Assembly: GCA_000091205.1 (NCBI GenBank)
Contig: AP006487.2
Reading direction: 5' to 3' (one strand)
DNA: 64,000 bases
Origin: Cyanidioschyzon merolae
Lineage: Eukaryota
Below the pieces are notes generated by a model. It saw only the letters and a program-made list of their open reading frames with translations. It made no database searches and was not told the origin of the DNA. A program made the position numbers and the translations under genes. Position 1 is the first letter of the stretch, and each line of letters starts with the position of its first letter. Positions 6,059 through 59,300 of the stretch are shown piece by piece.

Positions 6059-8826
6059 CTCGTTCGACGCTCTCTCAGTCCAATAAATACGGATATTTGT
6101 TCTTTCTCGAGTGAATATATCTTCACTATTGTTTTTTCGTTATGGCCAACACGAACGTAACCGCCGTGTGTTGTGAAAGCCAGAACAACAACGCACAGCT
6201 TGATAGCGCCAAAAGCGCGAAACGCGCGCGCACTACAGAGGAATTTGAATTGGGGTCATCATGATGCGATGAAGAATTCACGTTGATGTCGAGACTGGAG
6301 CGTAACGGACGTAGGGAATTCGGGGTACATAGTCCGAAATATCCAAGTTGAGAGAGGTACTGAGAGCTATATATAGGCTAGTGGGATTTCATTCGAATGA
6401 GTAACTCCCGAGTACTGCTCCTTCCGAGTGCCAGTCAGCAGGGTTCAACAGACTATGGCTTTGGGTAAGAAGGATAGCGGATAATGAACTATCGGTTACT
6501 GAGCTTCGTCTGTCAGCCGAAAGGCAGATGTATTCCTAAAGCGATTCATCTATCTTAAGTTTTCGCAAGACGATTGTGGTGGAAGTATTCCGTTTTACTG
6601 TTTGTGTTTAGCAGTCCTTTTCTGGTGGAGACAGCCAGGCAGAGTACATGGGAGGTTTGTCTTCCTCTGTACCATTGGTGTTTATTTTATACAGAAAACA
6701 TCGAATAATGAGCTCCTATATCTCTGTTGCGAGGAAACCTAAAAAATATCGCTCGAAAGGAAAATGGTCTCTGCTTAGGGAGTGGATGTCGTCGTTCGAA
6801 GTGACAGGCATATACGCGTACGCATGTTTGGACATTCAACGTACAAAGCGAGAACTCCTATGTCTTTTGTTCATCGAACCTCATTCGGCCTATGCTAGGA
6901 GCCATGTGTATCAACCGTGGCTCGCAAGCCTTACATCACCAAGCATTTCCAGGGATGGTGCAGACCAGTGATCCGTGGAGGATGCTCTCCCGATCGGAGA
7001 CTTCTTGACGTTTCTTCCAATTCTCCGACACCGACTCCATGGTGTCTACCTTTACATCTGCGACCTGCAAAACAATCTTCCGTTGCTGCAAATGACTCTA
7101 CCTACATGAGTGTCAGCCTCTCGGTATTGGGCCTACCCCATTTTATCTCGGTACCAATCAATACCTGGTCTCGCTTCTCAGATTGGATACTTGTATGGAC
7201 TTTGGAAACGCATTAGTCTGCGTTGGTCTTTCGACAGCAGCCAAGAAAACCCTCCGAAGTCTGCGGGTCCGTTAATCGACATCGGATCATTCGTAACTGC
7301 TTGATCAGGATCGCTTAATATGTATCGGCTTTTTTAAGACGGAGCTTAGTCTCTTGAAAGATCATATTCCCAGCGGCATCTTTCCGTAACTATTTTGGTG
7401 AGTAGCAAGCAATTTAGAGGACCAGTACAAATCTTTGGCTACCCGACAGTTTCCCCGGCAAGCTCCAGGAACGTCTCCGCTTAGTTATCGATCCAACAAC
7501 TAAACATGTCCACCAAGTCTACAGACCATTTTTATCTCGAATTTCCACCTTGCTCAGGCATTTATGCCAGCAATTGTCTCGCGATGTGCTTTTCATATAG
7601 CACATTCCCCAGCGCGCATCCTATTTCCCAGAACTCTCTACCCAGATACTTTGCCAAATATACCTTGTTCTGTTTTCTCGAATTACTAGCACGAGGCACG
7701 ATCACCGTTTCTGTCAGTCAGCGGAGCCATGATTCAATGCCTGGGCCTCTTGCATTGATCTCTGTTCGATGCCTCGCTGCTACCGCCTCATCGGAGGCTA
7801 TTTGGAGTTTCTCGCATGTGAAGGCGCTTTCAAGAGTGGAGAGCTTCTTCATGCTACTATTCAGCCTCTGCAATATTGTGCACAATCTAGCTTTCGGACT
7901 GCTTGCGTGGTTCAGCTGGTTACCCTGCTGTATTCTGTATGGAGAGAAAACAGAAGCTCAATCCGTTCTTGCAACTCAATGTATTTGCCAGTAATCTCCG
8001 GCAGTAGATGATAGAAGCCGGAAACTTCCCTCTATTTGACAATTTACCTTCTTGGCTGAATCTGCCTCGAACCGAAAATTTCTGTAGAGATGGTGGTTCC
8101 TGTTTCCTTGTCGTGATGGCAGTGATGAAACACGACCCATGTTGCTCTTCTTCAGCACTGCTTTCCCAGTATGCTGGGGGGCGCCGTTTGTCAGCATTGC
8201 ACCCTGGTAGTCGAGCACCTTCTAGCTCAACGCTCTGTGAAATCCGGTCGGCTTGCGCGGACTAAGGACATATCCTAGTGCAGCTTCCGGATATTACGGC
8301 CGTCTACGTCAAAAAGAGAGACTGCTCTGCAACTCGTCGAACCGATTCATCTTTGGAAGGGGCCATACGTCGCTTTCCTTGTACCCGGGCAGCTCTTACG
8401 GGCCAGGAAAACCTGATTCGATGCATCTGTCTCACGCCCGTAAAAGCAGCATCGGATGCATGTCATGGTCAGTTCCAGATCCCCTATGGGCTCCAACAAT
8501 AAATGTCCCCAATTCGGAACGCTTTACCGTACACTCCAGGAGGTATGCGCTATCTGCAGTGGCCACACATCTGCTCTACTCTCATGGACGACCACTTTCA
8601 GCATATTCTGGCCCATTCAATGGCAAGCAGTTCATAGTTACTGCACTAATTATCACATTTTGGAATATGCTTTTTGGCTCGCGAGACGCTTTTGGTACAT
8701 CCCTTCAGGAGGAATGCCTTCTCACCCGTTCACCATACGATAGTGAATACAGCAGGCCGTCTCATCGCTACACCGTTGCCCCTACATCCGTCCCTGATGC
8801 AGCGGTCTGCGCTTCGAAGGCGCCTC

Positions 8827-9908
8827 TCATCTTCGAAGCCAACACACTTTATTCAGGAAAAACGTATCCGACTTGAGACCTCGCCGCCGCAACGTCTGGT
8901 CGATCAGATCAAGGCTCAGTTCGTAAAGCTGATCTGCCTTGTCGATTTCATACGTTGGTTCAATGACCTGCGGTTTCGTCTTGTCTCGACCTTCCGTATA
9001 TTTGCCACGCCACTGATAATACGAGCCCGAGTCAGAGAACCGTCCCTGGGTCGCCATTTCGGCTACGCGGCGGCTGGCCCCATCATTCGGAACGTATTGC
9101 CGAGTGATGTACTTTTGAAGAATCGGGAAGAAGACGTAGCGGAACCAGCCACGCTTTTCACGGAAGAGGTTGCTATCGGCGACACATCCCGGGAAAATCG
9201 CTACAGAGGTCACCCCGTCGCGGCCGTATCAACCACTAAGCGCCTTCATTGTCAACACGTTCGCCGCTTTGGCGTCTTTGTAGGCTTATGTGGGCTCAAA
9301 CGGACCACTGTCCACCATGCCCGTCGTCTGCGGATCAAGCCCCGCGGCTAGACCCAACAAATCACCGAGACGAGCCTGCGGGGAATCTTTCCCGGCAACG
9401 AATTCGGCGAATGGGTCTGAGTCGTCAGAAACACAATGCGCCCGCGCGATATTTTCAGCTTCGGCAACAGCTCCCGACAGAGAAGCAAATGGCTCAGATG
9501 GCAAACCTGTATGGCCTTCTCGATGCCGTCCACCATGAAACGCGGTTTCTTGTACCGCGGATGCTATATTGCGGCATTGCAGATCAGCGCATCCAGGTGA
9601 TCAACGCGCGCTACTCTCGATAGCCCTCTCACAAACTCCAACACAGAGGCGAAATCAGCCAGATCACAATACAGCACTGTATAGGCGTCCTTTGGAAGGT
9701 TCACGCTGTTTGCTGCGCGTTCCGCCGGATCAATGTCACGACATGCCATGACGATATGCCAGTTGCCCTTGTTGATCAGAGCGGAAGCTGCATACAGATC
9801 GACTCCAGAGGACGCGCCGGTGATCACGGTGATCTGCGACTGTTTCGGACCTATACGAAGATGTAGCGCGTGGTGTCGGCGCGCTACAGGCGAACGCTGC
9901 ATTACCAA
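8827..9908 (-). pseudogene. Light-dependent protochlorophyllide oxidoreductase (POR)-like short-chain dehydrogenase, disrupted by two in-frame stops and one frameshift
   Basis: Four minus-strand ORF pieces (9564-9908, 9348-9536, 9286-9504, 8827-9213) align colinearly to POR: 'VITGASSGVDLYAASALINKGNWHIVMACRDIDPAERAANS' (POR GKWHVIMACRD signature), 'CHLSHLLLCRELLPKL', 'PQARLGDLLGLAAGL', 'IFPGCVADSNLFREKRGWFRYVFFPILQKYITRQYVPNDGASRRVAEMATQG'. Pieces 1/2 and 3/4 are each in the same frame, separated by a stop (TAG at a conserved Tyr position near 9565). Pieces 2/3 differ by a 1-nt shift in a 'gggaaag' run near 9385-9395. Confidence 0.6.
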
Positions 9909-10443
9909 AGGAAGCGGATGCTGACAGTGGTGACGATGTCCAGCTGCGAAGCACCCGTCACGTGGGGTACGCAGCGGGAACCGTGCACGAGTTGCAGCGC
10001 GCGCGCGAAAAATGTGTCTTTCCTAGTACAGCGGAACAGAAACAAAACGAGCTTATACTTTCTTGGATTAAGTCAGCTCCGGTGCGAAAGCCTCCGATTA
10101 CGTCACCAACTGGAGAGGTTGCGTATGCGTGCTCAACCAGTCAAAAACTTTTTTGCGTAGCTACACGACTGATCGCCCGTCAGTTGCACAGAATCCGAAT
10201 TCGACCTCCCGTAAACTGCATCGCGTTGAGCGCAACTCGCGTAAGCCCTCTGTGTCCATTGTAGAAGCTAGGCAAAACTCTAAGTTTTCTGAGCAACAAT
10301 CTCGCCAATACTAGTCGCTAGGCGCTTCGCAACGTTGAGCTCGGAGATCACGGCGGTCGTAGATGAACTTCATCGTAGCTCGCCTACGAATAACGTAAGG
10401 GAGGTGAAAGGGGGTTTTCTCCGGTGGTATGTTATTTTACAAG

Positions 10444-10530
10444 CTTCGTCAGTTGGAGACGATTCGCCTAGGGCGGGTTTCTCTCCACCATTGTACACCG
10501 CTGGCGTCGTTTGACTCTAGAACGGCGTTT
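10444..10530 (+). repeat. Solo copy of the ~85-nt 3'-terminal block of the Fanzor-like element (candidate transposon right end / omega-RNA-like region)
   Basis: About 80% identical, same orientation, to 13835-13920. It includes the shared core 'ggcgtcgtttgact(c)tagaacggcgtttg'. No upstream nuclease ORF is recognisable here. Confidence 0.5.
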
Positions 10531-12656
10531 GTTGTTGGCGGTGTGGGCTCGATGTACGGGTTAGGCTCTTGAAAATAATCTTATAGAGTAGACTAGAGTA
10601 CGTTAGGCGCTTTTGTCGGGTTCCTCGATCGCGCCAGGCGAGATGCGTCGGTCAAACGCCGTGCTACGTATGGACGCTCTATATGTGATATGCCTCTACC
10701 AAGATCGCCGTATCCGGAGGACGAGGCAGGCACCATAAGCTAGACAACGACGGCAGCATGCAAATGGCTTGAACGCTCATCAGTACGAGGCCGTGACGCC
10801 CGGCAGAAGCAAAATTCGGCTCAGTCCCCTATTCCAGCGTCCGTTCAGTATGCATAACAAGCACCCGGATAAAACGTATATCCGTGTTCAGGAATCCTAC
10901 CGCGCCTTTTTTTCCGATCAATAAAACTAACAGAAATCCTATCGAGTAGAGTGCTGGATACCTCATCCGCACGAGCGCAGGATACTACGGTGGCTACGCG
11001 TATGCTGGAATCATCGCGGAGTTTCGTGCCGGGCTCCTGCATCTCTATGTATGCCACTGCGGTGCTGCGATGGGCAGTAGCTTCGGCACCAGCGACAGAG
11101 TCTATAGCAAGAAATTATTCTACGTGAGTTTTCGATCTAGGACACTTGATTTCCGCTGCAGCGCGATGCGAACACGCATGTCCCAAGGCGGGGCGTCGGA
11201 CACGTGTCCTTCATCGATCGGTGGGGCGTCTCGCGCGGTGCGTGCATCGCGCCGGTGAGCGCAACTGGGAGATCGGGCAGGCATGAAACACGATGTGCAT
11301 GCCGTTGTGGAAGGGAAACGTGATCTCGATCAGAAGCGTGTTGTTCTGCTGTAAATATTTTTATTGCGTTGAGTTCATAGCAGAGTACGGCTTTTCAGTT
11401 TATTTCTGTTTCAGCCCTAAAACGAGTCTAGTCAAGCGTCTTGTCGCAGTAAATAACTGAAGGGTTCAAAGAGTGTTTTTTCTCAAAAAAACAAAAAAAG
11501 GAAAGCTATGAAAAAGCAAGTCGACGATCCAGGGGGGCCCGGAGTCGCCAGCTGCCAAAAAAACAAAAAAGAATACCGAACCCAGAAGGAAAGGTAGAGA
11601 AAAAGGAAGCAAAAGGTGGAGGCCCCACGACGAAGGCGCCAAAAAGACAACTGTACAACGAGATGGTGGTGAAAGCCTGTCTTCTTAAACACTCCATGGA
11701 TCCGTACAGGGAAAAGTTGCGAGACGCTATCAAAAAAGTGCTGCGTCATACTCCAAAAGTATTGCCAAGGCGTCGTCAGGACTGATGCATTTGGCGGGGA
11801 AGATGTATCGAGATGTGACGCACATGGAAATAGTCAAGATTTTGGACGAGTTTTTCGACAAGACTTTTATTCGACACCTGATGCTTGGTAAAGAGGAAGC
11901 GCGGAGTGAAAATGGGCGGATGCACGTCCTCCACGAAAACTTCGCCAAAATCCGCTTCGAGGGTACTCGATACAAGGGCGACGCGGATATTTACATATAC
12001 GGGGCGATGAAGTACCTCACGAATCTGCAGAACCATTTGACAACAAACCTCGAACGTTTCATGATACGCGCCGTGGTTGCACTCTACCCGGGCATCTCTT
12101 GCAATAGGAAAGGGGCGATGATCAACGGCATCACGAATGATCGCAAGCATGAACATGAGATCGAGTTCGTCGACGTGAAGGCGTCAAACAAGAGCACGAA
12201 TGAAGGTTCTGTAATCCGTGCGGTTCTATATGAGCACCGTGCGGTACTGGGTCTGGCGAATCCAAAAGACGTGGTATCAGACTTGAAAAGGATGAAGTAA
12301 GATACAATCGCCTCGTCCTGCGGTATTTCATGTTTCTGGACCGAGAGCTCGAACGCGAAGCGGAGATGAAGCAGAGTGAAAAGACATATGAAGAGTGGGA
12401 GAGACGGAAGGCTTCCCTAATGGGTAAGCGCTTCAACGTAGTTCGAATGCGCAACATCAAGTCACATTTCGTGACTATCGACTCCAGAGTCCTTTACGGC
12501 ATCATGAAGGAGATCCGTCCGGAGTTCAATGTTAGCAGGGAGGAATTTTCCGGTGAAAACCGAGAGACGTGCTGAAAGAGTATCTTCGATTTCAAACGTC
12601 TCAAAGTGAGCGAACAAAAGGTATTCACTGGGTTGATCTAAACCGATGGAGTAGCC

Positions 12657-13529
12657 TTGTGTATACACTATCGGCGATTGAAGAAAGATCGGCCAGTCCC
12701 TCCCGCGGCTGCGCCCGTGACGAGGGATGAAGAAAAGGAGGCGGCTCGTCCTGCGACACAGGAGGTGGAGGAGAATGACCTCGTCGTTGGCGTGACGAAG
12801 GATGAAGATGAGAAGGAGGCGGATCTTGCGACGCAGGAGGTGGAGGAGACTGACCTCGTCGTTGGCGTGACGAAGGATGAAGATGAGAAGGAGGCGGATC
12901 TTGCGACACAGAAAGTGCAGGATAACGGCTTTGTCGTTGGCGCGGACCCTGGGAATACGAATATCATAACCATCGCTGCTCCCAAGCGCGCGAGAGATGG
13001 TGCTGATGGTAACTTACTCCAGAAAGACATGCGTTTTTTGAGGTTCTCACGAGCGAGATACTATCGAGAACCGGGAATGATGAATGCGAGGAAGAAAATT
13101 GGTACGTGGAATGTAAGAATGAAGGATCACCTGGAAGCTTTAAGCGAGGTGACTAGCCGAGGAGCGGACTTTGGAGCTTTTCGGAAATTCATGGAAATTC
13201 GTGTTGCCCAATGGGATGCACTGTGGGAGGAGTATACGAAGCCCCGGTGCGCTCGTCTGCGATTGAGTCTGTATTGTAGGAAGCAACGGGCGTTCGCGAA
13301 TTTTTTTAATCAGTTGAGCGCCTTGAAGGAGGATGATGGTCAGAGGCTCGTAATAGCGTATGCAGCAGGGCGCTGGGCGTCGAAGAGAGGGACTACACCA
13401 GCACCAACGACGAGGGTGTACAAGGAGTGTGCACGGCGTTTTGATACAATACGGATAGACGAGTTCCGAACATCGTATACACATCATGAACTGGATTGTG
13501 CACTCCAGAGAGTGGAGATGGAAAAGTAA
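12657..13529 (+). CDS. Fanzor/TnpB-like nuclease core fragment (RuvC-I/RuvC-II region); probably non-functional as a stand-alone ORF
   Basis: 290-aa ORF (track start is TTG). Contains 'DPGNTN' RuvC-I and '[18 protein letters not shown]'. Internal 60-bp tandem duplication encodes '[24 protein letters not shown]' twice. Confidence 0.55.
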
Positions 13530-13580
13530 CAGACAAGCCTTGAGGATATAGCAAAGTACGGACCGCTGACCGAAGAGCAA

Positions 13581-13859
13581 ATGGAAAGGAGGGCAAAAGT
13601 TCGTGGACTCCTTCCATTAGTACGTACAACCAATGATGGCAAGAAACGCATGGAATTCGTGAACCGTGACTTTCATGCCGCTATCAATATAAGGAAATAT
13701 GCGGTGCTGGAGAAGAGACCTCCAGAGCTGCCAAAAGTGAATTTTTTTGTACAACCTTCCAAAATTGAATTATTTGAGAAAATATTGGAAGCGGTAGTGG
13801 GTGGCCGGTCCAAAAACACGGGGTGGCGTCTGCACGTCAGTCGGAGACATCAGGTCTAA
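13581..13859 (+). CDS. Fanzor/TnpB-like C-terminal fragment (RuvC-III motif)
   Basis: 'MEFVNRDFHAAINIRKYAVLEKRPPELPKVNFF...', in frame with 12657-13529 but separated from it by TAA. The homologous C-terminus recurs at 30660-30742 (minus strand) and 57700-57929. Confidence 0.55.
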   Translation: MERRAKVRGLLPLVRTTNDGKKRMEFVNRDFHAAINIRKYAVLEKRPPELPKVNFFVQPSKIELFEKILEAVVGGRSKNTGWRLHVSRRHQV

Positions 13860-13973
13860 GGCGCCGGTTGGCGCGTCTACTGTACACAGTCGGCGTCGTT
13901 TGACTTAGAACGGCGTTTGGCCGCGTTTCACTTTACCGCAAAACTTCGGTACTCTGAAAAGCGATTTCGTGCA

Positions 13974-14273
13974 ATGTCCTCCGAGACCAGTGATAAGAAA
14001 CCGGTAGTGTCTGAGGGTAAAACTTCCGGAGGTGACCAAATCAACCTCAGAGTGCGCGATGCCGACGGCAACGAGGTCCAGTTCCGGATCAAGAAACACA
14101 CGCCCCTGCGAAAGCTCATGGATGCGTACTGCACACGTAAGGGAGTAGACTTGCACAGTTATCGTTTCTTGTTCGACGGGAATAGAATAAATGAGGACGA
14201 TACCCCGGAAAAACTCGGTATGGAAGATATGGACTCGATCGACGCAATGTTGTTCCAGCAGGGAGGCTGGTGA
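13974..14273 (+). CDS. SUMO: SUMO (Smt3-type ubiquitin-like modifier)
   Basis: 99-aa product from ATG 13974: 'MSSETSDKKPVVSEGKTSGGDQINLRVRDADGNEVQFRIKKHTPLRKLMDAYCTRKGVDLHSYRFLFDGNRINEDDTPEKLGMEDMDSIDAMLFQQGGW'. Canonical SUMO core with C-terminal GG and a single residue after it. Confidence 0.85.
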   Translation: MSSETSDKKPVVSEGKTSGGDQINLRVRDADGNEVQFRIKKHTPLRKLMDAYCTRKGVDLHSYRFLFDGNRINEDDTPEKLGMEDMDSIDAMLFQQGGW

Positions 14274-24650: not shown

Positions 24651-25587
24651 ATCGAATGGAAATGCGTGCGCTTGCGTGTGCATCGGACAACGCACTAGCC
24701 GAGACTTTCACCCGAAAGAATCCTGTGATTTCAGGTTACGGCACCGGGTACAGAAACGGAAAAGGGCATCGAGCGGAACCTAATATTCAAGTTGCTCCAA
24801 CGCGTCGTGCAGCGGAGGCAAGTCTGCATACGCAAACTGTCCGAGCACAAATCGACAACGAGACTCGATCATGTGTCGGGTGAAGCAGGCTCTGAACCGA
24901 CGCCCTCTGTGGTATGGCAAAGCTGTTCTGCCTTCGTGCTGCATCAGCACCAGTGGTGTACGTGCCATGGCGGACGCTCGCGATATGCACTCGGAGCAAT
25001 ATAGAGCGTAAACAATATGCGGTATCCCCGAAGTAAAGGATGGTTAGTGGTACTTGGAAGTAGATGGAACGATGGATGCTTCATCGTGCGCTGAGAACAA
25101 GCGCACTGTTGGGGATCGCTGGTCTGCGTGAACATTCCGTCAAACAAAAAGAAGCAAAATCGAGCGCGCTCGCACGAGTTTTGTGAATGCGCAAGTCAAC
25201 GCTATCCGGACCCCAGCGATACGTACCGGAAGTTACATGGGGTGACGTCTTTGCGAGCTCAGTGCTGTGGAGCTGGAACCGCAGCTTTAAGTATCTACAG
25301 GGTTGTGCCCAAAGGCACCAATGTCGGAATACTTTCAGCGTGTCATGAACCACCGTTTCCAGGTTTGGATTCAGAGCTACCGCTGCGATGCCGAATCTTC
25401 ATCTCGATGCATCGCAGCAGAGTTTTCCCGTTCGGTAAACTACGACATATGAGGTGTTTTCGCATGACCTGCCCAGTGACATTGCGATCGGTTTGTACGA
25501 AGGTTTGCGGCGGCGGCGCCCTGTCGAACACCAAGAGGCATTATTTGCAAAGGCTAATATCGGGCAGGTACCGGTGGACCCTATCTA

Positions 25588-26706: not shown

Positions 26707-27644
26707 GGTTCGCAGCAAAATAGCCGTTCAGTTCCACTCTGAACAAATACACGTTCTTGCTTTGTCAGCGCCAGCAGCGATGTGCACAGTGAAGATGTTT
26801 TAGCGTAATAGACATCTGGCTGCTTCGCAAGGCCTACCTTCCCGCACACATGATCGTCGATGCATGCGCATCGCGCGACTGTCATCGACACCAGAAGAGA
26901 GAATGACGACTAATAGACAATTCTGTACAAGATTGCTTTCCCGCTCTAGGGTGAGCGGTGGTACGTCGAAAAGTTTCCCATGTTTTCTATCGGATCCTTA
27001 TAGTGACAAGGTTTCGCGAGCAGGACAAAGCTGCCGGTCTTTCGCTCCGTGCCCCCCCGCTGGCGGGTGCTAGAGTGAGACCTCAGCTGCTTGTCCGTAA
27101 CAAAGCACATTCTGGGACTAGGAGCAGGCTGCTGCGTCTGGGCGTCGGTCTGGTTGTGGTGGACTCCCAGTGTAACGCTTCGCGCTGCCGCAGGTGGCAC
27201 GTCTGTCCGCAAAGCCTACAGACTACCAGAATAGTGACGAATCCCGATCCCGTTTGGGATCAGCCTCAGCTCGAGCCGACGCTTTCAGTTGTATGGCAAA
27301 GCCGTTCTGTCTCCGTTCTGCATCCGCCCGGCCGTATGGGCGCTATGGCGGGTGCAGTAAGGCAGGCGCTCGGCGCACGATAGAACGTTCGGAACGACCA
27401 TCTCATCCGAGAGGATGTAATGGAGCTTACAGGTAGAGAGCGGCATAATGGACGCTTTCCCGAAAGCGATTACCTATCGCGCAAGCTGATAGCCGTGGCC
27501 AAAGTAAACGTATTTTCAAAACAAATGAGTGGGACCGTCTATACGCCTCCAGCGCTTGTCCGTAGCGACAGAAGCGTGCCACCACGCTACCCAGGGCAGC
27601 GCCCGGAAAGCATGTGGTGGAAATATGGGAACACGTGACCACTG

Positions 27645-30549: not shown

Positions 30550-33000
30550 TTGACCGACTGACTGCTATCAGCTTCAGTTTATCCAGGTATGCTTCGATCA
30601 TAAGAGGATGTTTCTCAAACATGGCTCGCGTCAGGTCCTCGGGTCTCTTCCTCAGCGCCACACATGGTTTGATGTTGACGGAGGCGTTGAAGTCTCGGTT
30701 AACGAACTCCTTGTGTGCATTGCTGCTGCTTGAACTGATCATTGCAAGGAGCGCTATACATCATGCTCTCTTCGCAACTACACTCTCGTCATCGTCCCGT
30801 CGCCCAAACACTTTTTCTCGTCCATATCCTCTCTCCTTCGTCGTCTTTTGCTCGTCTTCGCTCGATGATCTATGAGAAGAAGATTTTTCCATTTGTGTGT
30901 CGAACATGGTGATGGAGGCCCTCCAGGATCCCCGACTTCTATGTCCATACCTTTTCCTTCGATTTTTTATCTTTGAAAATGAACGCTCTTGTTTATGCGC
31001 ATAGTTGAGGACCTTCCCGAAGAAAGAGAGACTTGCGCAAGCTCGACGACGTGTGCCCCGGTGTGTCACCGTGTGCTGAACGCTTCAGCGATTCGCCCAG
31101 TAGAGCGATCATCACACGTTCCACATTAGAAAGGAGTGCTTTGATAAGGCCGCGCCACGGTGCGTACGGAGGAATGAAAAGCTGCTCTCACCCCCGCAGA
31201 ATTGGCACAGCTCGAACGCAACAGGAATGGTGAAATGCTACGTTTCCAATCGAAGGACATTGCCAGTCGTCACGGAAAAAGTCTTGAATGATTCGATAAA
31301 AAGAGTGCTGTTGTGTGAGCCTTCTCTATTTGTGAAACTGAGGAACCGAATGGAATCCAATGCAGCTGGAACAGATGATATCCTCGTTCTTTTCGAGCTC
31401 TATCGTACATACAACGCGCTCCTTCTCCTCGAATAACCGTGTACGTTCTGGTCGTTTTTCTCCGAGGAAAGTCTCATCTACTTGCAAAACAAATCAAAGT
31501 CGCTGTGCTTCATGCCATTCGCGAGGCTCCAGGAGTGCTGCAGTTTCGTTTTCGGTGGAAGATGGCCATAGTTGAACTGAGACTCTTTTTGGCGAGTGTA
31601 TCCCGGTGTTTTCAGGACCACACGAACAAGCTGTTGAGAAACAGAGAAGCCCATAGCGGCTACGATCTTCGCTTTTTGCTTTCCGTGAAAGTTGACCAAC
31701 GGGTTGTTCTCTACCATTGGCTGCAAGCTGTCTCTACGAGTACCGGTTTGTGGCGCGAAGTGCATCTACTTTCTTTCGATGCTGCTGAACCATCTGAGTA
31801 CTGTGGTATGACTGAGCTGAAGGAGCAATGCAGTCCTCTTTGCACTGTTCAGTAAAAAATATGTATACTTCAGGCAGTTCGTCTACCATCTTTCCAGCGC
31901 ATTGTATCGTGATTGCGACCGCCTAATATACACCGCAGCCGGGTGGATAAAGATTGGGTTAAAAGACTCTGGCTAAGGAGGGCCGACGTACCCGGTACCA
32001 ACCGGCGTAGGTCGTATGCCGGATGGTTGAACAAGTCACAGATGCTGAGCGATACAAGAGTACGCGGAAAATAAGATTCCAAGGGTTTTGTGAAATGTGG
32101 AAGCATCTCTATGACGAGAACTGACGCCATTTGCAACATTACTAGCATTCTTCGCGCGTTCGAATACGCTGGTTCTAGTCACGGGTACTGCACCAACACG
32201 AAAACCCGGTACGGTCCCGGGACGGAGCACTCCCAAATGGCACCGCTGTCGCTCGAGCGCGCCTCTGGCCATCGAGAGGCGAGGTCTCCATGACAAGCAC
32301 CTAAGGCCAGACCAGATTAAAATGGGATGCTGAACAGCTCGAGTTGCCTGTGCCTTTCGATTTCTTTTACAGACCCTTTTAGTAGTAGAGCCTCGAAAAT
32401 TCGAGGTATAGGAGTGAGGGTTTACGGACTCACAGCTAGTTTTCGGATTCTTGTTCGTCTAGTCTGAGCGGGTACTTTGGCGATTTAGAGTCGGAAATTG
32501 CTACAGAGTCAAGATGACTCACAATAGACTTGGACTAGTGCCAGAAAAGTAACCAATGACATCATCCAATTCACAAGTACAGACCACCACTGTTCTCTTC
32601 ATAATAGATGTAGTGTGCTCATATTATATATTCTTTGTGTTCTCGATCTTTCTCTTACAGAGCAACTGGCTAGCGTACGAATGAGGTCGGCTGGATTGAT
32701 GACGAAAAAACCTCGACGTCGTTTCTTGCTGAATTCTTCAAATGCTCGCGCCAAAAGTTTATGGGATGCGTCACTCCAAATCCTCGACTCTGTTCGGGAG
32801 AGAAATCCTCCTCGTTTCGTCGCCATTGACGAAGCTGAATTCGACGGCAACATGAGAAAACTCACGGGAGGTGCTCACAGAGACTTCGTTCTCTTCTATC
32901 TGCATGTAAAAGGGTCTTGGACTCGGATTTTAGTCATAGCAGTGATCGCTCCTGGAAGGGAATACCTCATCGCCCGGCAAGAAGGGACCGTAGCCGAATA
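30550..33000 (-). mobile_element. Fanzor/TnpB-like element copy 2 (degenerate, minus strand)
   Basis: 30660-30742 (minus) encodes 'HKEFVNRDFNASVNIKPCVALRKRPEDL...', homologous to copy 1 'MEFVNRDFHAAINIRKYAVLEKRPPEL...'. The upstream piece 30761-31069 has '...FDTQMEKSSSHRSSSEDEQKTTKER', comparable to copy 1 'QRVEMEK..LTEEQMERRAKVR'. The 3'-terminal nucleotides 30540-30600 are homologous to 13790-13850. Upper boundary (~33000) is approximate, and frames are broken throughout. Confidence 0.45.
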
Positions 33001-35937: not shown

Positions 35938-36125
35938 GTCTCCATTCCATACGGGAATACTCCACAGGGCATCCGCGAATGCTGCCCAGCATCCCTAGCT
36001 ATGCGGGATGCAGTTTGTCTCCATTCCATACGGGAATTCTCCACAGGGCATCCGCGAATGCTGCCCAGCATCCCTAGTTGTGCGGGATGCAGTTTGTCTC
36101 CATTCCATACGGGAATTCTAGACAC
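35938..36125. repeat. Tandem repeat, ~78-bp unit x ~2.4 with internal inverted repeats
   Basis: Unit 'tctccattccatacgggaat(a/t)ctccacagggcatccgcgaatgctgcccagcatccctag(c/t)t(a/g)tgcgggatgcagtttg' repeats head-to-tail. 'gcatccgc…gcgggatgc' forms a dyad. Confidence 0.6.
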
Positions 36126-42059: not shown

Positions 42060-42269
42060 TGCGGAGAAGCTTGTCTACTGGGTCTTGCTATAGCGGAACG
42101 CACTCATTCAGCGCTTTCCGTCCCTTGGTATCCGAAGCCGACCCAAGTGTCATCGTGTACGCGATGTTTCGTAAACCTCGCCGCGGTAGCCCGCGGATCA
42201 TGTACCGTTGCCTGGCCTCAGGATGGAGCGAGTTCGAAACGAAAACAGTTGCCTGCAAAAATATTAAAG

Positions 42270-42872
42270 AAAAAATGTGCCTGGTGGTGTCAGAATCCAA
42301 CAATTTTGGAACTAGAAAATAGTTTTCTGAAAAGATGTTGACAGAAAAAGTGCCTGGTGGTGTCAGAATCCAACAATTTTGAAACTAGAAAACAGTTGTC
42401 TGAAAAGATGTTGACAGAAAAAGTGCCTGGTGGTGTCAGAATCCAACAATTTTGGAACTAGAAAATAGTTTTCTGAAAAGATGTTGACAGAAAAAGTGCC
42501 TGGTGGTGTCAGAATCCAACAATTTTGAAACTAGAAAACAGTTGTCTGAAAAGATGTTGACAGCAAAAGTGCCTGGTGGTGTCAGAATCCAACAATTTTG
42601 AAACTAGAAAATAGTTTTCTGAAAAGATGTTGACAGAAAAAGTGCCTGGTGGTGTCAGAATCCAACAATTTTGAAACTAGAAAACAGTTGTCTGAAAAGA
42701 TGTTGACAGAAAAAGTGCCTGGTGGTGTCAGAATCCAACAATTTTGAAACTAGAAAACAGTTGTCTGAAAAGATGTTGACAGAAAAAGTGCCAGTAAGTG
42801 TCAGAATCCAACAATTTTGGAACTAGAAAATAGTTTTCTGAAAAGATGTTGACAGCAAAAGTGCCTGGTGGT
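42270..42872. repeat. Minisatellite: ~61-bp unit x ~10 in the SRalpha / DHRS12 intergenic region
   Basis: Unit '(g)aaaagatgttgacag(a/c)aaaagtgcctggtggtgtcagaatccaacaattttg(g/a)aactagaaaa(t/c)agtt(t/g)tct' repeats head-to-tail. Each unit holds small hairpins ('agaaaa-tag-ttttct'; near-palindrome 'ccaacaattttgg'). Confidence 0.75.
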
Positions 42873-43943
42873 TTGTTCACATCGATGGTGCCTTCACGAT
42901 TACAGGCTCACTCCGATGGACGTGGGCCTCTCGCACGCCAAAGCGAGTATAGTTGGCTCCGAGGCGTACCACGCGTTGAAAGGTTGGTATCGTGCTCAAA
43001 TGAGCGCCCTATTGAACCAGTCCGTCTCTCGTCTATGTCAGAAACGACCGTCCAATGAAGCATTCTAAGACCCCCAGGAGTTTTCTCTGTAAAATCAGCA
43101 CTCGGGAGCGGAATCCTTCGGTGCTGTATGCAGTCCTGACGTGCAGCGCCGCCGCCTGCGACAGATACTGCTGCTGCTGCTGCGCCAGTTTGCATATAAG
43201 CGCGAGGTATTCCACGGAAGGACTGCTTTTCGCTGTTCTTTACCTGTTGATTGTATCGCTGGTATGTGAAAGCGATGGTGCGGCTTCAAAAGCATCGGTG
43301 TGTCTACGGTTTTACGGGGGCAGGGGGTTCCACGCAGTCCAAGCGGCGCTCACAAACGGATCGGCGAGCGCTCTGGGTTCAGCAAGCTCGCGTTTGCTGT
43401 ACAAAAAGAACGCCACTACAAAGCGGTGATCGTATTTCGAGAGAAAGAGGAAGCACCTGGATTCGATGCCGCGACTCGTAACAGTGCACAAGCGTATTTT
43501 GACAATGAAATGAGCATCGTAGATGACAGCATCGACGATATTTCAACGCACCATGGGATTCAGTGTGCAATCGGCGTGCCAAGAGGAGCGCCTAACAAAA
43601 GCATGCATCCACGGAACGTTCGTCAATGGTTGCGAGCACGCGCATAGGCTGCTCATGTGCCCCGAAAGAAGGCACAGGGCTAGAACGTGCAACAGGTGCA
43701 GCGCGAATTTGCCGCTACCCCTCATTCGCAGGAAACGACAAGCGGTGTGTCGGTACCCTGTATCGCACAACGAATACACATTTCGGAAGCAGAACAGGCC
43801 AACATAGCGCCTCTGCTGATGCATCAACAGGATTTGGAGAAAGCAGCACGCTGGCCTTTGTCTCTGAGCCGGGGGCTCACATCCGTATACCCCACCTGTC
43901 GTGCATTCCGCATTAGACACGATCTTGATGCATAGGTGGTGCA

Positions 43944-48635: not shown

Positions 48636-49520
48636 TGTTGAGGGCGTTCTCGGCAACCGCACGCTTTCCCTCTCTCTCCGTCTCTCTCGCGCTCTCTCTC
48701 GCTCGCTCTGATCTCCGGCTTCAATGGCGCAGATGGCTCTATTCCATATCGAGTCGTTGTCAGCGGTCGAAGGACGTTGAGGGCAGCTCGTAACTGCCGA
48801 TCTCGCCGCACCCAGCTGTTGTCGACGCATTCAAACTGCAGGCGGACGCTGCGGACCAGGAAGCTCATTCGTAAACAGCCTCGACACGCCTTTTGCACCA
48901 TAGACGCTTGGCTACGGTCACGTGTTCCCATGCGTTCACCGCACACCCGCATCCAACTCCTCGTCTGGCTCCTGCATTGCCTCCGCCTCCTCCGCCTTCC
49001 AGCGTCATCCAGTGGTGCCTGAACGCATGCTTCATCGCTCGATACATGACGCTGACCAGTTACCGACGTCTACCACGAATGTCATGCCTCATTATCGCGC
49101 TCGATGGCATACCCGACGAATCACGAGCATCTTCGGGGTGATCCGCTCCGCTCGTTTCTTGTGAGATGCAAGCGCAAGCACGCGCTGTTGTATTCGATAG
49201 AGGATTTGCAAAGCGCGATCTTGTCAATGGTAAAACAAGTACAACAAGCGAAATCCAGGCTGGAAAAGGCGTCGAAAAACTTCCAATCAATCTATGCTCC
49301 ATTCGTGCAAAGCGGTACCGCGCTCCCCAATGAAGTTGATCCCTGCATCGCCTCCGGTCCGGGTATAAGACCATTTTCCATGCTAACAGAGGAGATGGGA
49401 GCCTCTGGCACCATATCCGCTCAAAAGCGTGCTGCTGCTGCTGCTGCTGCTGTAGAATGTTGTCTCGTCCATGCTCATAGAGAAAGACGATTTTCTGTAT
49501 CGAAAGGAATCGATTATTTG
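48636..49520 (+). repeat. Mosaic dispersed repeat family, copy 1 (modules A + A')
   Basis: 48636-49275 is ~99% identical to 54693-55330 (module A, with a CT-rich tract). 49276-49520 (A') is related to 58540-58800. An ORF (49104-49538) spans A/A' and is partly conserved at the amino-acid level in copy 3 ('PFSMLTEEMGASGT…AVEC' vs 'PFSMLNEAMGAAGT…AVEW'). Confidence 0.7.
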
Positions 49521-50704
49521 ACGCGCAAACTATACTGATTTTTCTGCATGAGCTCGTGAAAAAAGCCGTCAATGGATGAGGTCGAGCCCTTTTTCTCCGA
49601 AATCATAATACACAAAATGCTGCGCACACACGAGTTGCAACAGAAACATCCAATGTTAAGCAATATGTAGTTCGAGCATGCTACACGTAAGAAAAGGAGA
49701 AACGCGGATACTCGTACGTATCCATTGCATGATGATATCCACTACTGAACGAACCCTCGTTCTAGAGCGTCGCCAGCCATCCTGACTCAGATGACGTTAC
49801 AAAAAATCCTGCAGCAAAGCGTCCGCGGCGCGACTCCGAACAGGCTCCTGAGAATCCTAAAACTGCACATGAACACGTAAGCCCTTTTTCCTGCAGTTCG
49901 AATGTCGGCGTTGTACATCTTATAATGGTTCGAAAAATCGAAAGGCAGGCAGAAGCCAGCAGTTCTGTGCTCTATTTTTATTTGGCGCGGATGTCGAGCG
50001 CATGGCAACCAGCGACGCATGACGTCTGCCGCGGGATCGAGGACCCTATCCGAAGAACCCCAGTTGCGCAGATCTAGTGGGCAGTTAGGAGCAAACGACC
50101 GCCGTTCCCTTCTAGATTCCTCCATTCTTTCAAAGCTGTCCAGACGAGCCTAGCCGATGCCAAGAGAGGCTTGAGCGATCCACAACAACCATGCGGATAC
50201 CGCGGACGCCTTGCGAGGCCGTGACGGTGCCGCTACGCCTCAGCGGACTTCGACTAGAGACGAGGTTCGTTCAACAGGGAGATTCGGAGCTCGTCGTCGG
50301 CTTCGGACGCCAACTGGCATTACTGACAGCTTCGCTGCATGCAGCAGCGCGGACGGCCACACGAGAGGAACGCAGTGACCACAGCAAAACGGAGGCGCTG
50401 AGCACAGTCCGCCCCCGTTCACAGTCGCAGGAACATGTGTACAACGCTGTGGAGCGGCGCGAGCGACGCAGCGGCACGCACCACTGCGCAAGTACGCTGA
50501 CCACTGTACAGACTGATGGGTACACTTCACAAAAACTCTCTGCATCGAATGTAGCGTCGTCCAAGTCTCGAAAATACTACCAAATACCGCCTCTATCCGA
50601 TGGAAAACCAGGAGTGGTGTTGTTGGTACCCAGAGGACGCTGGAGCGGAGCATGCCACGCTTCCTCGGGTAGCGGGAGCCCCGTGTCACGCCCCTAGCAT
50701 ATGC

Positions 50705-50870
50705 AATATCCATGCATGAATGCTTGGATGCACGGATGCATGAATGCTTGGATGCACGGATGCTTGGATGCTTGGATGCACGGATGCTTGCATGCACGGA
50801 TGCACGGATGCTTGGATGCACGGATGCTTGGATGCACGGATGCTTGCATGCACGGATGCATCACCGATCA
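50705..50870. repeat. 8-bp microsatellite (WYGGATGC)n, ~20 units, ~310 bp upstream of the dynamin start
   Basis: 'ttggatgcacggatgcttggatgcttggatgcacggatgcttgcatgcacggatgc...' The period of 8 is not a multiple of 3, so the ORFs reading MHECLDARM... across it are artefacts. Confidence 0.75.
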
Positions 50871-51180
50871 TCAAAAAAAACCACCACAGCACCAGAAGCT
50901 AAGGCATCGATGAAATCGGACACGCTGGCACTGGACCTGCGCGCCATCGGAGCGCGCTGCTGTCCGTGGGCGCCACCGGCGCCATGCGCGCGTGCACGGA
51001 TCGCAGTGTGCCTTCGAAAGCGTTCGATGCAGGGCAGCGATCGCGCTGGTGTCCGCTTTAATGCTGTGTCCAGAATGTCCGAAACGGACGGTACGCCACC
51101 GTTCCCGGTGCTGCACGAAACGTTGACAACGAGGCTTGGCGCTCTGGGTACGCGTTGCTCGGGCGAACGCGACAGGCTTC

Positions 51181-53487: not shown

Positions 53488-54692
53488 TGCGCGTTCGTCA
53501 CATATTCGAACGATTGTAAACCAGTTTTGCCTCAGGCATCCGGGAGCAGGATCTCAGCACAGCGTTCTGGACGATGCTGGTCGCGTTTTGCGAAAAGCGT
53601 ATCCGCTGCAGCGAACGACTGCGAACGGCTCATGGATGCGTACGGTCATGCACGGGGGGCGCCCACAACGACACCCGCTCAGTGGTTTCGGGAAGGTGTT
53701 CTTGTTTTTTTCGTCTCCGAGTTTTGCGTTCGCACCGGGGCTGTCGACGCCACTGGGAGCATCCACGGCAGACTCGGCGCACGATGGAACATGAGAAACG
53801 CCCAGTATCTCCGAAGGGACCAGGGTTGATGGAATTCGGCAGTATGCCATGGAATGATGGACGCTTTCTCGGTCGCTTATAGCAAGCGTGCTACCCTCTT
53901 TCGTATATAGATTCGGTGGATCGAAAAGGCAGCTGCTCCTTGCACGCGTTCTACGATGACCGCGACGCTGGCAGGGCAGGTAACGCTCCCCGTATGCGTT
54001 CTAGCGGGTTGGCGTCGAGTGCACAGCGGCCCAGCGCTCGCCATCGTTATCCGAACGATATAGACGGGGTTCCAGACCGTACCCAGCGCTGAAGCAGATA
54101 CATGTGCGCCCCAGATATCGCCGCATCTCTGCAGCAACACCGACAAGCACCGCGTTGGCATGAGCGCTGGCCACCATCGGTAGTTGAGCACGCCCGGCAA
54201 TGCCGTGCACGCTGCTCCGGGCCGGAGCAAACCACGTGTTGTGTTTCGGACGCAAGACTCCTGGTCGATTGCTGCAAGTACGCTGATTCGATGCGTGTTT
54301 GCATGAGTTCAGTCGAGCGATATGGACAGGGGCGAGCTGCTGTGCCTTGTGCTGAATGCGGAGCATGCCCATCGCCTGGAACGGTGAATGTCGTTGCCGG
54401 TATGGATACCAGCGAGCTACCGTAACTGAGGATACCGGGAGCTCAGATCCATATAAGCCAAATCAGGTACATAGTGGTGTTGGTGGATGATATCAGCGGT
54501 AGCAGCGTCTTCTTAGAAAACAGGTATCTGCTGAAACAACAAGCGTTCTCTTGAACACGGCCGCACCGCCTGACGAGCGCTTGTCTCATTGCCTCAATAC
54601 ACGTGTTCGCGTAAAATGCAGCATGATGACTGACAATGGCGTATATGCTCAAAATTCGGCAGCTTTTCGAACGATTATGAGTACCATCATTG

Positions 54693-55830
54693 GTGGGCGT
54701 TATCGGCAACCGCACGCTTTCCCTCTCTCTCCGTCTCTCTCGCGCGCTCTCTCTCTCGCTCGCTCTGATCTCCGGCTTCAATGGCGCAGATGGCTCTATT
54801 CCATATCGAGTCGTTGTCAGCGGTCGAAGGACGTTGAGGGCAGCTCGTAACTGCCGATTTCGCCGCACCCAGCTGTTGTCGACGCATTCAAACTGCAGGC
54901 GGACGCTGCGGACCAGGAAGCTCATTCGTAAACAGCCTCGACACGCCTTTTGCACCGTAGACGCTTGGCTACGGTCACGTGTTCCCATGCGTTCACCGCA
55001 CACCCGCATCCAACTCCTCGTCTGGCTCCTGCGTTGCCTCCGCCTCCTCCGCCTTCCAGCGTCATCCAGTGGTGCCTGAACGCATGCTTCATCGCTCGAT
55101 ACATGACGCTGACCAGTTACCGACGTCTACCACGAATGTCATGCTTCATTATCGCGCTCGATGGCATACCCGACGAATCACGAGCATCTTCGGGGTGATC
55201 CGCTCCGCTCGTTTCTTGTGAGATGCAAGCGCAAGCACGCGCTGTTGTATTCGATAGAGGATTTGCAAAGCGCGATCTTGTCAATGGTAAAACAAGTACA
55301 ACAAGCGAAATCCAGGCTGGAAAAGGCGTAGAAAAACGTTGACTGCAATCGATGATTCGCATTGCCGAGTTCAGCGCTATCTCAGCATTGCTATGTGATC
55401 AAGTCATCCAGGGAAGATCTCGGGTGTTTGCTCTCGTCCATCCAGCGGCGCGAATCGCTGTGCCCACAAATCCCCTTGAACCTGATTGGTAGAAAACCTG
55501 ATGCATGCAAAGTCTGCGCATACTCTATCTGTTTGACACGGAAAAGCATGCAGATTGCTACCCAGGACCTGGACCATGAAACCGGTTGGTTTACGAATCC
55601 TCGTTCGAGGGCGTCGCCATGCATCGGTCTTGCGGTGCCGCAACGATTTCCAGTGGCACAGCGCCCAGAGCGCCACGCCCAGGAGACAAGCGAGAATCCC
55701 AAGAATTCGGACGAATCTGTAAGACCCCATTGCTACACTTCGGTTATCGAAGCTGTACACCTGAACAGCATTCCGATAAAAATCTCAAGCCAGGACTAGA
55801 GCCAGCAGTCCAGTGTCCCATGTTCATCGG
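54693..55830 (+). repeat. Mosaic dispersed repeat family, copy 2 (modules A + B)
   Basis: 54693-55330 matches copy 1 module A with ~6 differences. 55335-55830 is ~97% identical to 58803-59300 (module B). A' is absent. A c>a change creates a TAG in the frame that is open in copy 1. Confidence 0.7.
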
Positions 55831-58059: not shown

Positions 58060-59300
58060 CGCGGGCCTGTCTGTAACCGCTTCCTTTGCCTGTCTCTCGG
58101 ATTTCCGGCTTTCAATATGCGAGTCCTTTGTTTTCCTGTGGATCCGTTGTAATCAAAAGAAGGACGTTTATGGCAGTTTGAAGGCCCCGATTCTGAAGTT
58201 CCAGGCTGTTCTCGACACCGCTAATGCACAACTGGAGGTTGCGATCAACGCTTTCGTTGTGTTCTTGCGATCTTCTTTGGATAGAACTGCGGTGTGCTCG
58301 TCGCAGCGGTGAGAGTTGCCTGTCATCAGATGTTCGCATGCGCCCAACAAATTCCCTCGTCCGAGCGATTCCCCTCTGTCGTGGAAACGCTTGCTTCAGC
58401 GCTCGATGCATTGCCTCAACGGATACGGAAAGCGCGACTCGATGCTTTGCTGCGGTGAAGCCTCTGGGCGATGCCCGCGGCGAGTACCCTCGTTGCGGCA
58501 CGGCGCACGCGCACGCTGTTCCATAAGGCAGAGAATTTCGTGGAATGCACAATGTCGTCCATGATGAACCAAGTATCCGACGGGAAGTGAAGGCCTGGGT
58601 AGACTTGGAAAAATTTCGGTTCCTGTACGCTACCTCCATGCGAAGCAGTCGATATGATGAATCAGGTCAGAGTCCGATGCCCTTTTCCATGCTAAATGAA
58701 GCGATGGGAGCCGCTGGTACCGCATCAAAAGAGAGCTATGATGGTGATGGTGATGCTGTAGAATGGCGTCTTGTCGATGAACACATATAGGGGGAAAAAG
58801 GCTGGCCTTTCGGACGCAATCGATGATTCGCATTGCCGAGTTCAGCGCTATCTCAGCATTGCTATGTGATCAAGTCATCCAGGGAAGATCTCGGGTGTAT
58901 GCTCTCGTCCATCCAGCGGCGCGAATCGCTGTACCCACAAATCCTCTTCAACCTGATTGGTAGAAAACCTGATGCATGCAAAGTCTGCGCATACCCTGTC
59001 TGTTTGACACGGAAAAGCATGCAGATTGCTACCCAGGACCTGGACCATGAAACCGGTTGGTTTACGAAACCTCGTTCGAGGGCGTCGCCATGCATCGGTC
59101 TTGCGGTGCCGCAACGATTTCCAGTGGCACAGCGCCCAGAGCGCCACGCCCAGGAGACAAGCGAGAATCCCAAGAATTCGGACGAATCCGTAAGACCCCA
59201 TTGCTACACTTCGGTTATCGAAGCTGTACACCTGAACAGCATTCCGATAAAAATGTCAAGCCAGGACTAGAGCCAGCAGTCCAGTGTCCCGTGTTCATTC
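58060..59300 (+). repeat. Mosaic dispersed repeat family, copy 3 (diverged A + A' + near-identical B)
   Basis: 58060-58800 is ~75% similar to module A/A' of copy 1. 58803-59300 is ~97% identical to 55335-55830. It starts ~130 bp downstream of Fanzor relic 3. Confidence 0.6.

Follow-up and report, generated by a model that had tools for sequence, protein, structure and literature searches.

The conserved right end of CMe-1 Fanzor1 elements in Cyanidioschyzon merolae is a candidate omega-RNA scaffold region

A 64-kb stretch of the genome of the red alga Cyanidioschyzon merolae (contig AP006487.2), called the window here at its full length, carries a Fanzor1 pseudogene of the CMe-1 family on its plus strand. 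Fanzors are RNA-guided nucleases of eukaryotes that are related to TnpB and Cas12. The pseudogene (positions 11509 to 13859) was delineated from three-frame translations and is broken by at least three frameshifts and by in-frame stop codons at 12573 to 12575, 12639 to 12641, and 13527 to 13529. Its last 12 codons, including the stop, and the 58 nt that follow make up a conserved plus-strand block (block B, 13823 to 13917) that was recognized by a covariance model. A related block (block A, 10440 to 10529) lies upstream. We consider it likely, while well short of certain, that B is the right-end module of a CMe-1 element as well as the probable scaffold of its omega-RNA (the guide RNA of such nucleases), and that A is the stub of a second element copy.

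An earlier note on this DNA had reported that the 3' end of a Fanzor-like open reading frame (ORF), with the sequence downstream of it, recurs at a second, upstream site in the same orientation and with no nuclease ORF adjoining. These observations were borne out. Global alignment of 10447 to 10531 with 13835 to 13919 gave 66 identical columns out of 87 (75.9%), far beyond chance, and the 29-nt core pattern of the blocks had a chance expectation of 0.00 in 100 shuffles of the window. Both blocks are on the plus strand, and tblastn with a full-length family protein matched the window only at 11573 to 13748 and at a remote remnant (30617 to 30787). The likeness of A to B is uneven, with 90% identity over the 3' 40 nt and about 60% over the 5' half. 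For comparison, 79 related metagenomic loci (designated L with a number) were sampled. A covariance model trained solely on other family copies, and not on the window blocks, scored block B at 88.3 bits (E value of 4e-22) and block A at 77.3 bits (E value of 4e-19), and a scan of the 64-kb window with this model revealed no third block. The true repeat unit is a bit longer than first given, at about 95 to 103 nt; in B it starts about 36 nt 5' of the stop codon TAA (13857 to 13859) and ends 2 bases past a terminal hairpin.

CMe-1A, a Fanzor1 family of C. merolae, comprises about 150 copies that are about 80% identical to a 3,169-bp consensus (Bao and Jurka 2013, PMC3627910; Repbase). It was published as lacking terminal inverted repeats (TIRs), with target-site duplications (TSDs) undetermined and its class unknown, and CMe-1 was described as an old, unclassified, high-copy element in which intact nuclease genes were, puzzlingly, retained (PMC3627910). 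The conceptual protein of the window copy was identical to the published CMe-1 protein at 286 of 359 positions (80%; BLASTP E value of 0.0). Positions 13760 to 13915 of the window aligned at 80% with the 3'-most 160 nt of the CMe-1A consensus, and block A aligned at 78.6% with its last 84 nt. Both alignments ended at the final base of the consensus (window position 10527 in the case of block A), the 3' end of which reads ...GGGAGGCGTCTGCACGTCAGTTGGAGACGTTTTGTCTAGGGCGCGTTTGCCGCCACTACTGTACACCGCTGGCGGCAGCGTTTTTCTTTTGAAAGGCG. Because the window alignment stops at the last consensus base, block B is the right terminus of an element family that was already known. CMe-1A begins with 635 bp that equal TE-N2_CMe and that were not found in the window copy; its 5' region differs and is common to L024, L033, L042, and L060. 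Because this region is unlike TE-N2_CMe, the window copy is placed by its sequence in a sister subfamily and not in CMe-1A proper. It resembles CMe-1A in the high copy number and divergence (~80% identity) of its family, in its 3' terminus, and in the lack of detectable TIRs or TSDs, and differs from it in the 5' region; the published account gives the 3' terminus no RNA interpretation (PMC3627910). We regard the repeat as real and as correctly placed: it forms the right end of this already known Fanzor1 family and probably its guide-RNA region.

Protein searches returned at least 225 homologs of the window Fanzor, several of them with Pfam DUF8286, and a locus scan found more than 460 matching places, drawn from a handful of Joint Genome Institute (JGI) metagenomes. 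The close protein matches all stemmed from metagenomes or read assemblies. The longest family members have 752 aa. In the window pseudogene, RuvC-I (GADPG, ~12945), RuvC-II (IDEFRTS, ~13465), and RuvC-III (NRDFHAA, ~13665) were located, and a WED-type TDG motif is recognizable in the conceptual protein. The catalytic residues D484, E656, and D725 are invariant in 14 intact relatives. In hhalign, the family profile matched green-algal Fanzor1 (PMC3627910) with a probability of 72% and an E value of 3e-5 over a span that includes TDG, DPG, and DEF.TS. A Pfam-A search of the window ORF fragments and of relatives P0005 and P0117 gave no match. Between RuvC-II and RuvC-III, where a C4 zinc finger would be sought, the family has only HHELGC...EKC, and the second Cys codon of this motif is a stop codon in the window copy. 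Bao and Jurka list CMe-1 as Fanzor1 (PMC3627910) despite the absence of a full C4 finger. Just 5' of RuvC-I, a 75-nt (25-codon) tandem repeat lies inside the ORF (12716 to 12940), with three copies in the window and one to about five across the family (family alignment columns 400 to 540). The remote remnant, on the minus strand at 30617 to 30787, corresponds to aa 693 to 750 of the family protein (48% identity); no right-end block was recognizable beside it, even with the covariance-model filters turned off.

In the orthologous locus L002, the block is 98% identical to block B. The search for copies elsewhere that the earlier note had proposed was answered by the covariance model, which located the block behind every Fanzor coding segment in the 79 loci, including truncated and internally deleted copies. 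The parts of block B follow one another closely on the plus strand. Hairpin H1 (AGAC/GTCT, 13845 to 13857) extends its 3' arm into the stop codon and is paired in 80% of cells across copies; hairpin H2 (GCGCC-GGTT-GGCGC, with the family form GGCG...CGCC; 13861 to 13874) is paired in 95% of cells. A single-stranded linker (13876 to 13889; family consensus CCACTACTGTACAC) is the most conserved noncoding stretch, with a column entropy of 0.38 versus about 0.65 at third codon positions. Terminal hairpin H3 (GGCGTCGTTTGA / AGAACGGCGTT) and a final TT (13892 to 13917) form the element end, as judged by covariation and by the drop in information content. The 58 nt past the stop codon are conserved to a level equal to or above that of third codon positions. 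Past the GGCG of the hairpin, the information content is 1.0 to 1.4 bits for TT, at most 0.3 bits thereafter, and about 0 beyond +12; apart from a weak G/T bias, the 3' flanks of different insertions are unrelated. By analogy with SpuFz1, the flank directly past the right end (13918 to 13937) is the predicted position at which a Fanzor or TnpB guide would be read. Synonymous-site entropy in the last 160 nt of the ORF was 0.53 to 0.61 versus about 0.68, and this slightly raised conservation gives no upstream limit for a scaffold. Two unusual right ends were observed among the related loci. In L077 (2400 to 2434), the terminal hairpin is replaced at the same position by an unrelated, perfect 13-bp GC hairpin, and in L049 (654 to 803), the right end has a tandem duplication of its distal half, resulting in two terminal hairpins.

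Structural support was greatest for H3. In an alignment of 65 distinct copies that was fitted to the covariance model and leans toward it, two-sided changes occurred in at least one copy at all 12 pairs of H3, 86% of cells were paired over the whole structure (versus 33 to 51% with the partners slid), and the covariation score was reached by no shuffle. The terminal hairpin has 10 to 12 bp, and at least five sequence-distinct hairpins, among them the 13-bp one of L077, occupy its position across the family. The mean minimum free energy of H3 was −10.3, and the corresponding values were −7.0 with shuffled sequences and −8.2 with the reverse complement; the sense strand is more stable than its complement because of frequent G-U pairs. 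RNAalifold, run on a MAFFT alignment, predicted H2 as the sole helix, with invariant outer pairs and an inner pair split evenly between CG and GC (18 sequences each). It misses H3 because the two versions of this hairpin are misaligned by sequence methods. A possible long-range helix between CAGTAGT in the ORF (13792 to 13798) and ACTACTG in the linker is feasible in 87% of cells.

An omega-RNA scaffold, or the 3' core of one, is the most likely function of block B, since its anatomy matches that of characterized Fanzors on every point visible in sequence. The omega-RNA of SpuFz1 consists of a 75-nt scaffold across the right end and a 14- to 15-nt guide taken from the flank just past the conserved scaffold, and that of GtFz1 overlaps 17 codons of the ORF (Saito 2023, PMC10432273). 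Other Fanzors copurify with RNA derived from the noncoding 3' region that adjoins the right end (Jiang 2023, PMC10530073). In all sampled CMe-1-type copies, a noncoding region likewise runs over the 3' end of the nuclease ORF up to the right end, and the segment directly 3' of it is variable, with the caveat that 12 to 21 nt of G/T-rich flank are shared above controls (see below). The likeness to SpuFz1, GtFz1, and other Fanzor guide RNAs thus lies in a conserved noncoding region at the ORF 3' end that extends to the right end and gives way to variable flank (PMC10432273, PMC10530073). Block B overlaps 12 codons, compared with the 17 in GtFz1, and the predicted CMe-1-type scaffold is of similar size, at about 95 to 125 nt compared with 75 nt for that of SpuFz1 (PMC10432273). 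Unlike SpuFz1 and GtFz1 elements, CMe-1-type elements have no inverted repeats at their ends. A literature search found no paper on an omega-RNA for a C. merolae Fanzor.

In the proposed mechanism, transcription would proceed through the ORF end and across the right end to reach the flank, the RNA would be trimmed and then bound by the Fanzor nuclease, and the first ~15 to 20 nt of flank, from 13918 onward, would serve as the guide. The right-end sequence probably also marks the element end for the copying machinery. As the nuclease gene of the window is dead, the window copy could at most supply RNA to nucleases made elsewhere. The reading of the block as an omega-RNA or right-end region, already put forward in the earlier note, stands insofar as the block straddles the 3' end of the Fanzor1 ORF, forms the right end throughout the family, and is followed by unrelated sequence; the part of that proposal that treated the solo copy as an independently conserved element does not (see below).

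Several results weigh against the interpretation of block B as a guide-RNA scaffold. When 21 close copies were aligned by sequence only, covariation was weak and was matched by 41 of 500 shuffles. H1, which lies in the coding region, showed almost no covariation, H2 hardly covaries, and the long-range helix showed none, so that of the structural covariation named as a check in the earlier note some was found, in the terminal hairpin, which is the sole part for which sequence comparison gives such support. Folding energies of single sequences were unremarkable (z-scores of −0.7 to −2.4). Rfam returned no family for the block, whether the region, the entire window, or four paralogous loci were scanned. 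At the protein level, a profile search against PDB sequences gave no match, and an AlphaFold2 model from a 14-sequence alignment had a predicted local distance difference test score (pLDDT) of 32, too poor to use; the basis for membership in Fanzor is the family's classification in the literature, together with the catalytic motifs and the one hhalign match. Finally, a terminal hairpin at a transposon end would also be expected of a DNA-level recognition site.

The subfamily-specific 5' region of the element (10553 to 11244, plus strand) has a left limit that is common to L024 and lies 24 nt past block A: homology to L024 starts at 10553 to 10555, and the L024 sequence upstream is unrelated. 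Conservation across the whole family starts farther in, at the core left end (11245 to 11340, plus strand), as determined from the coverage profile and the distribution of left boundaries. A hairpin at the core left end (11249 to 11262; GCGCC-GGTG-AGCGC) keeps its pairing while its sequence differs among copies, with the variants GCGCTC/GAGCGC, GCGCTCA/TGAGCGC, TGCGGT/ACCGCA, and GCGCGTG/CACGCGC in the window, L001, L007, L021, L029, and L043. The 5' flanks of 18 CMe-1A/TE-N2-type left ends (L013 to L082 and window position 27521) are T rich, with a consensus of about TTTYTYTC; T was present at −4 in 16 of the 18 and at −2 in 17, and C was present at −1 in 11. This T-rich flank is a candidate target motif or target-adjacent motif (TAM). 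At 22 junctions, no convincing TSDs were found, and there were no TIRs. A simple 5'-truncation series, considered for the short copies, was partly withdrawn, as several of them are internal deletions in which the TE-N2-type 5' region is preserved. A Hammerhead_II hit on the minus strand at 10768 to 10821, inside the 5' region of the element (25.8 bits, E value of 0.057), was below the gathering score, was not reproduced in four paralogs, and was taken as chance.

A serious rival is that the block acts only as DNA, as a cis-acting right end whose single-stranded hairpin is recognized by a transposase or rolling-circle protein of the IS200/IS605 or Helitron2 kind, with no guide RNA involved. The core left end and the right end both bear hairpins, on the same strand, and the 5' regions are variable or deleted, in contrast to the constant 3' end. 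The T-rich 5' flanks of CMe-1A/TE-N2-type left ends resemble the TTTT target of the Chlamydomonas Helitron2-borne Fanzor1 elements, in which the 3' end is over-represented too, and neither TIRs nor TSDs were found, here or in the published analysis (PMC3627910). CMe-1-type elements share with the Helitron2-borne CRe-1, CRe-2, and CRe-3 of Chlamydomonas and with IS200/IS605 the one-strand hairpins near both ends, the constant 3' and variable or missing 5' parts, the T-rich 5' junction, and the lack of regular TSDs (PMC3627910). They differ in that no convincing asymmetric terminal inverted repeats, CTRR-type end, or TnpA partner was identified (a RepHel partner was not searched for), and in that several apparent 5' truncations are internal deletions with the 5' region kept. 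No transposase gene was found in the element, and conservation extends beyond the hairpin to all 95 nt, including the unpaired linker. DNA and RNA roles are, moreover, not exclusive, and the right end of IS200/IS605 serves as both a DNA end and an RNA. The same region yields an omega-RNA in every Fanzor studied (PMC10432273, PMC10530073). We therefore view a role as DNA as compatible with an omega-RNA role and consider it unlikely to be the block's only function.

Block A, read as an orphan right-end stub, contains H1 to H3, lacks the upstream ORF part, and corresponds to the last ~90 to 100 nt of an element. Immediately 5' of it, at 10390 to 10439 on the plus strand, a conserved hairpin and T-rich junction (..CTCCGGTGGTATGTTATTTTA) is common to the window, L033, L042, L060, and L084. 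At L082, a homologous locus, what comes after this T-rich junction is the 5' end of a full-length CMe-1A-type element, and for this reason block A is best read as the remains of an element copy at that junction, which may have arisen by truncated insertion or by later deletion. A second element copy would thus have been reduced to a 3' stub that lies at the T-rich insertion junction and ends 24 nt upstream of where the present element's 5' region starts, and a protochlorophyllide-reductase-like (POR-like) gene, the stub, and the element would later have been duplicated or recombined into at least five loci. Among the ~830 kb of related loci, blocks without a preceding coding sequence were found only in the window, L033, L042, L060, and L084, and the homology among these five extends over a long stretch, the POR-like gene included; "upstream blocks" in other loci mostly follow a Fanzor remnant of their own and are the right ends of neighboring copies. 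L084 and L082 align with window positions 6236 to 11830 and 6626 to 10345, respectively, at ~79% identity. The end of the shared segment coincides exactly with the downstream element's right end; four loci reach this far, and in all of them the next 2 kb are unrelated.

The POR-like gene of the window is a minus-strand pseudogene (8830 to 9950) recognized by its POR motifs, with a stop after NAAI and frameshifts; its homologs are named protochlorophyllide reductase. It stands head to head with the Fanzor element as part of the segment common to the block A loci. POR-like genes also occur in L033 (19 to 852), L084 (1796 to 3007, with an intact ORF of 403 aa), and L082 (8001 to 8762). Linkage of POR to Fanzor was seen in at least six loci at ~79% identity, so that a host-type gene lies within the repeated segment.

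Among L033, L042, and L060, identity was 83 to 91% within the block and 80 to 86% in the flanks, and their hairpins have two broken pairs in common. Window block A, compared with the other A-type copies, was 65 to 68% identical within the block and 74 to 80% identical outside it, a lowering confined to the window copy, and it resembles the common main-type block, with its last 40 nt 90% identical to block B. The lowered identity to A-type copies within the block, together with this resemblance, suggests that the stub of the window was overwritten by gene conversion from another family member.

Block A could instead function as a solo guide-RNA gene, in which case it would be a ghost locus and would provide an extra omega-RNA with its own guide to Fanzors made elsewhere; we think this quite improbable. 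ORF-less loci are numerous in other organisms, with 134 in Spizellomyces (PMC10432273) and 20 extra guide-RNA copies in Chlamydomonas (PMC10530073), block A retains H1 to H3 and a score of 77 bits, and A-type copies persist in five loci. Like the ghost Spu-1 loci and the solo guide-RNA copies of Chlamydomonas, it is a right-end or omega-RNA-like block with no neighboring nuclease ORF. Ghost loci, however, retain both ends around a short conserved noncoding core and are many in number and well conserved (PMC10432273, PMC10530073), whereas block A has no left end of its own, represents a single lineage in ~830 kb of related DNA, and sits within a larger duplicated segment. The block is no better conserved than its flanks, the two broken hairpin pairs are shared by three copies, and A lacks the ORF-embedded upstream part, including the complement of the conserved linker. 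For these reasons, the suggestion of the earlier note that the solo copy is an independently conserved noncoding element was not upheld. A mini-element composed of block A and a left-end-like motif at 10217 to 10237 was also rejected; the motif matched at 20 of 24 positions with an E value of 0.07 and is not conserved in paralogs. The reading of block A as a 3' stub is therefore retained.

A third possibility is that block B is an mRNA 3'-end element that acts in 3' untranslated region stability or 3'-end formation of the Fanzor transcript, with no guide function. It lies directly past the stop codon and has a stable hairpin followed by U residues. Against this, the conserved unit starts within the ORF and stops exactly at the element boundary, and the block persists in copies that have no ORF. 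We know of no mRNA 3'-end signal of this kind for the organism, and we judge this explanation very improbable.

The flanks past the right end raise a further idea regarding how the family spread. Across 59 right ends, unrelated insertions share the first 12 to 21 nt past the right end ~8 times more often than control offsets do; at least 12 of 18 positions matched in 16 of 1,706 pairs, versus 4 of 3,412 controls. The shared flanks are G/T rich (TTGTTGGTGTG, TTGATGGTGCG, GTGGTGG, and TTTCCAGGGG), as in window positions 10530 to 10550 compared with L047 positions 6582 to 6602. They may represent a fast-evolving element tail, a target preference, or, least likely, the footprint of guide-directed insertion. 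If the last applied, the family could have spread by right-end-anchored copying steered by its own guide RNA in place of a conventional transposase. New copies would then arise where the guide of the omega-RNA matches, and repair would copy the donor from the right end inward. Compatible with such copying are the constant 3' end, a 5' extent that ranges from ~100 nt to at least 7.7 kb and takes in a host gene (POR-like), the exact stop of the shared segment at GGCGTT in four loci with unrelated right flanks, and both the excess sharing of the stretch past the right end and its guide-like length. We nevertheless give this idea little credence and regard it as a speculation that is very unlikely to hold. 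Fanzor copies were also seen to cluster: many loci have two copies within 2 to 3 kb, some with inverted partial duplications of the RuvC half (L029, L004, L025/L058, L073/L075, L019 to L021, and L053/L066/L070/L072). This clustering suggests insertion hot spots or frequent ectopic recombination.

The earlier alternative of a ~3.5-kb element (10444 to 13919) with A and B as its direct terminal repeats, whether long terminal repeat-like or recombinase-borne, is scarcely credible, for although two co-oriented copies do lie 3.39 kb apart with a nuclease gene between them, and L033, L042, and L060 show the same spacing class, the alternative is contradicted: the homology between the window and the loci with this arrangement extends at least 4 kb beyond A on its left side, as far as 6236, so that A is in the interior of a shared segment that measures at least 7.7 kb; family-wide conservation begins only at ~11245, with unrelated 5' regions in other subfamilies; most copies have no upstream block, and most of those that exist follow a Fanzor remnant of their own; the repeats do not mark both limits of a mobile unit in independent copies; and the published 3,169-bp consensus has the block at its 3' end only (PMC3627910).

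The remaining features of the window lie around or apart from the element. A SUMO gene is located downstream of block B (13977 to 14273). TE-N2_CMe-like copies or fragments on the minus strand (26932 to 27518, 24873 to 25081, 53764 to 53871, and 60104 to 60285) account for dispersed repeats D7 and D9. Other repeats seemingly have nothing to do with the Fanzor element: a tandem array with ~12 units of 73 nt (42127 to 43002), an 8-nt GGATGCWY microsatellite (50687 to 50884), a 79-nt doublet (35938 to 36095), and two pairs of 300-nt direct repeats with 97 to 98% identity (48667 to 48966 with 54724 to 55023, and 55345 to 55644 with 58816 to 59115).

To our knowledge, few Fanzor guide RNAs have been defined so far, and no reading of the CMe-1 right end as a guide-RNA region was found in the literature searched. 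New here are the exact coordinates of a candidate scaffold, a covariance model for it, a defined terminal hairpin, and a predicted guide start. For annotation, such blocks, orphan stubs included, should be masked as CMe-1 ends and not called as new RNA genes. Any RNA-guided activity of the CMe-1 family thereby becomes directly testable in C. merolae, a genetically tractable red alga.

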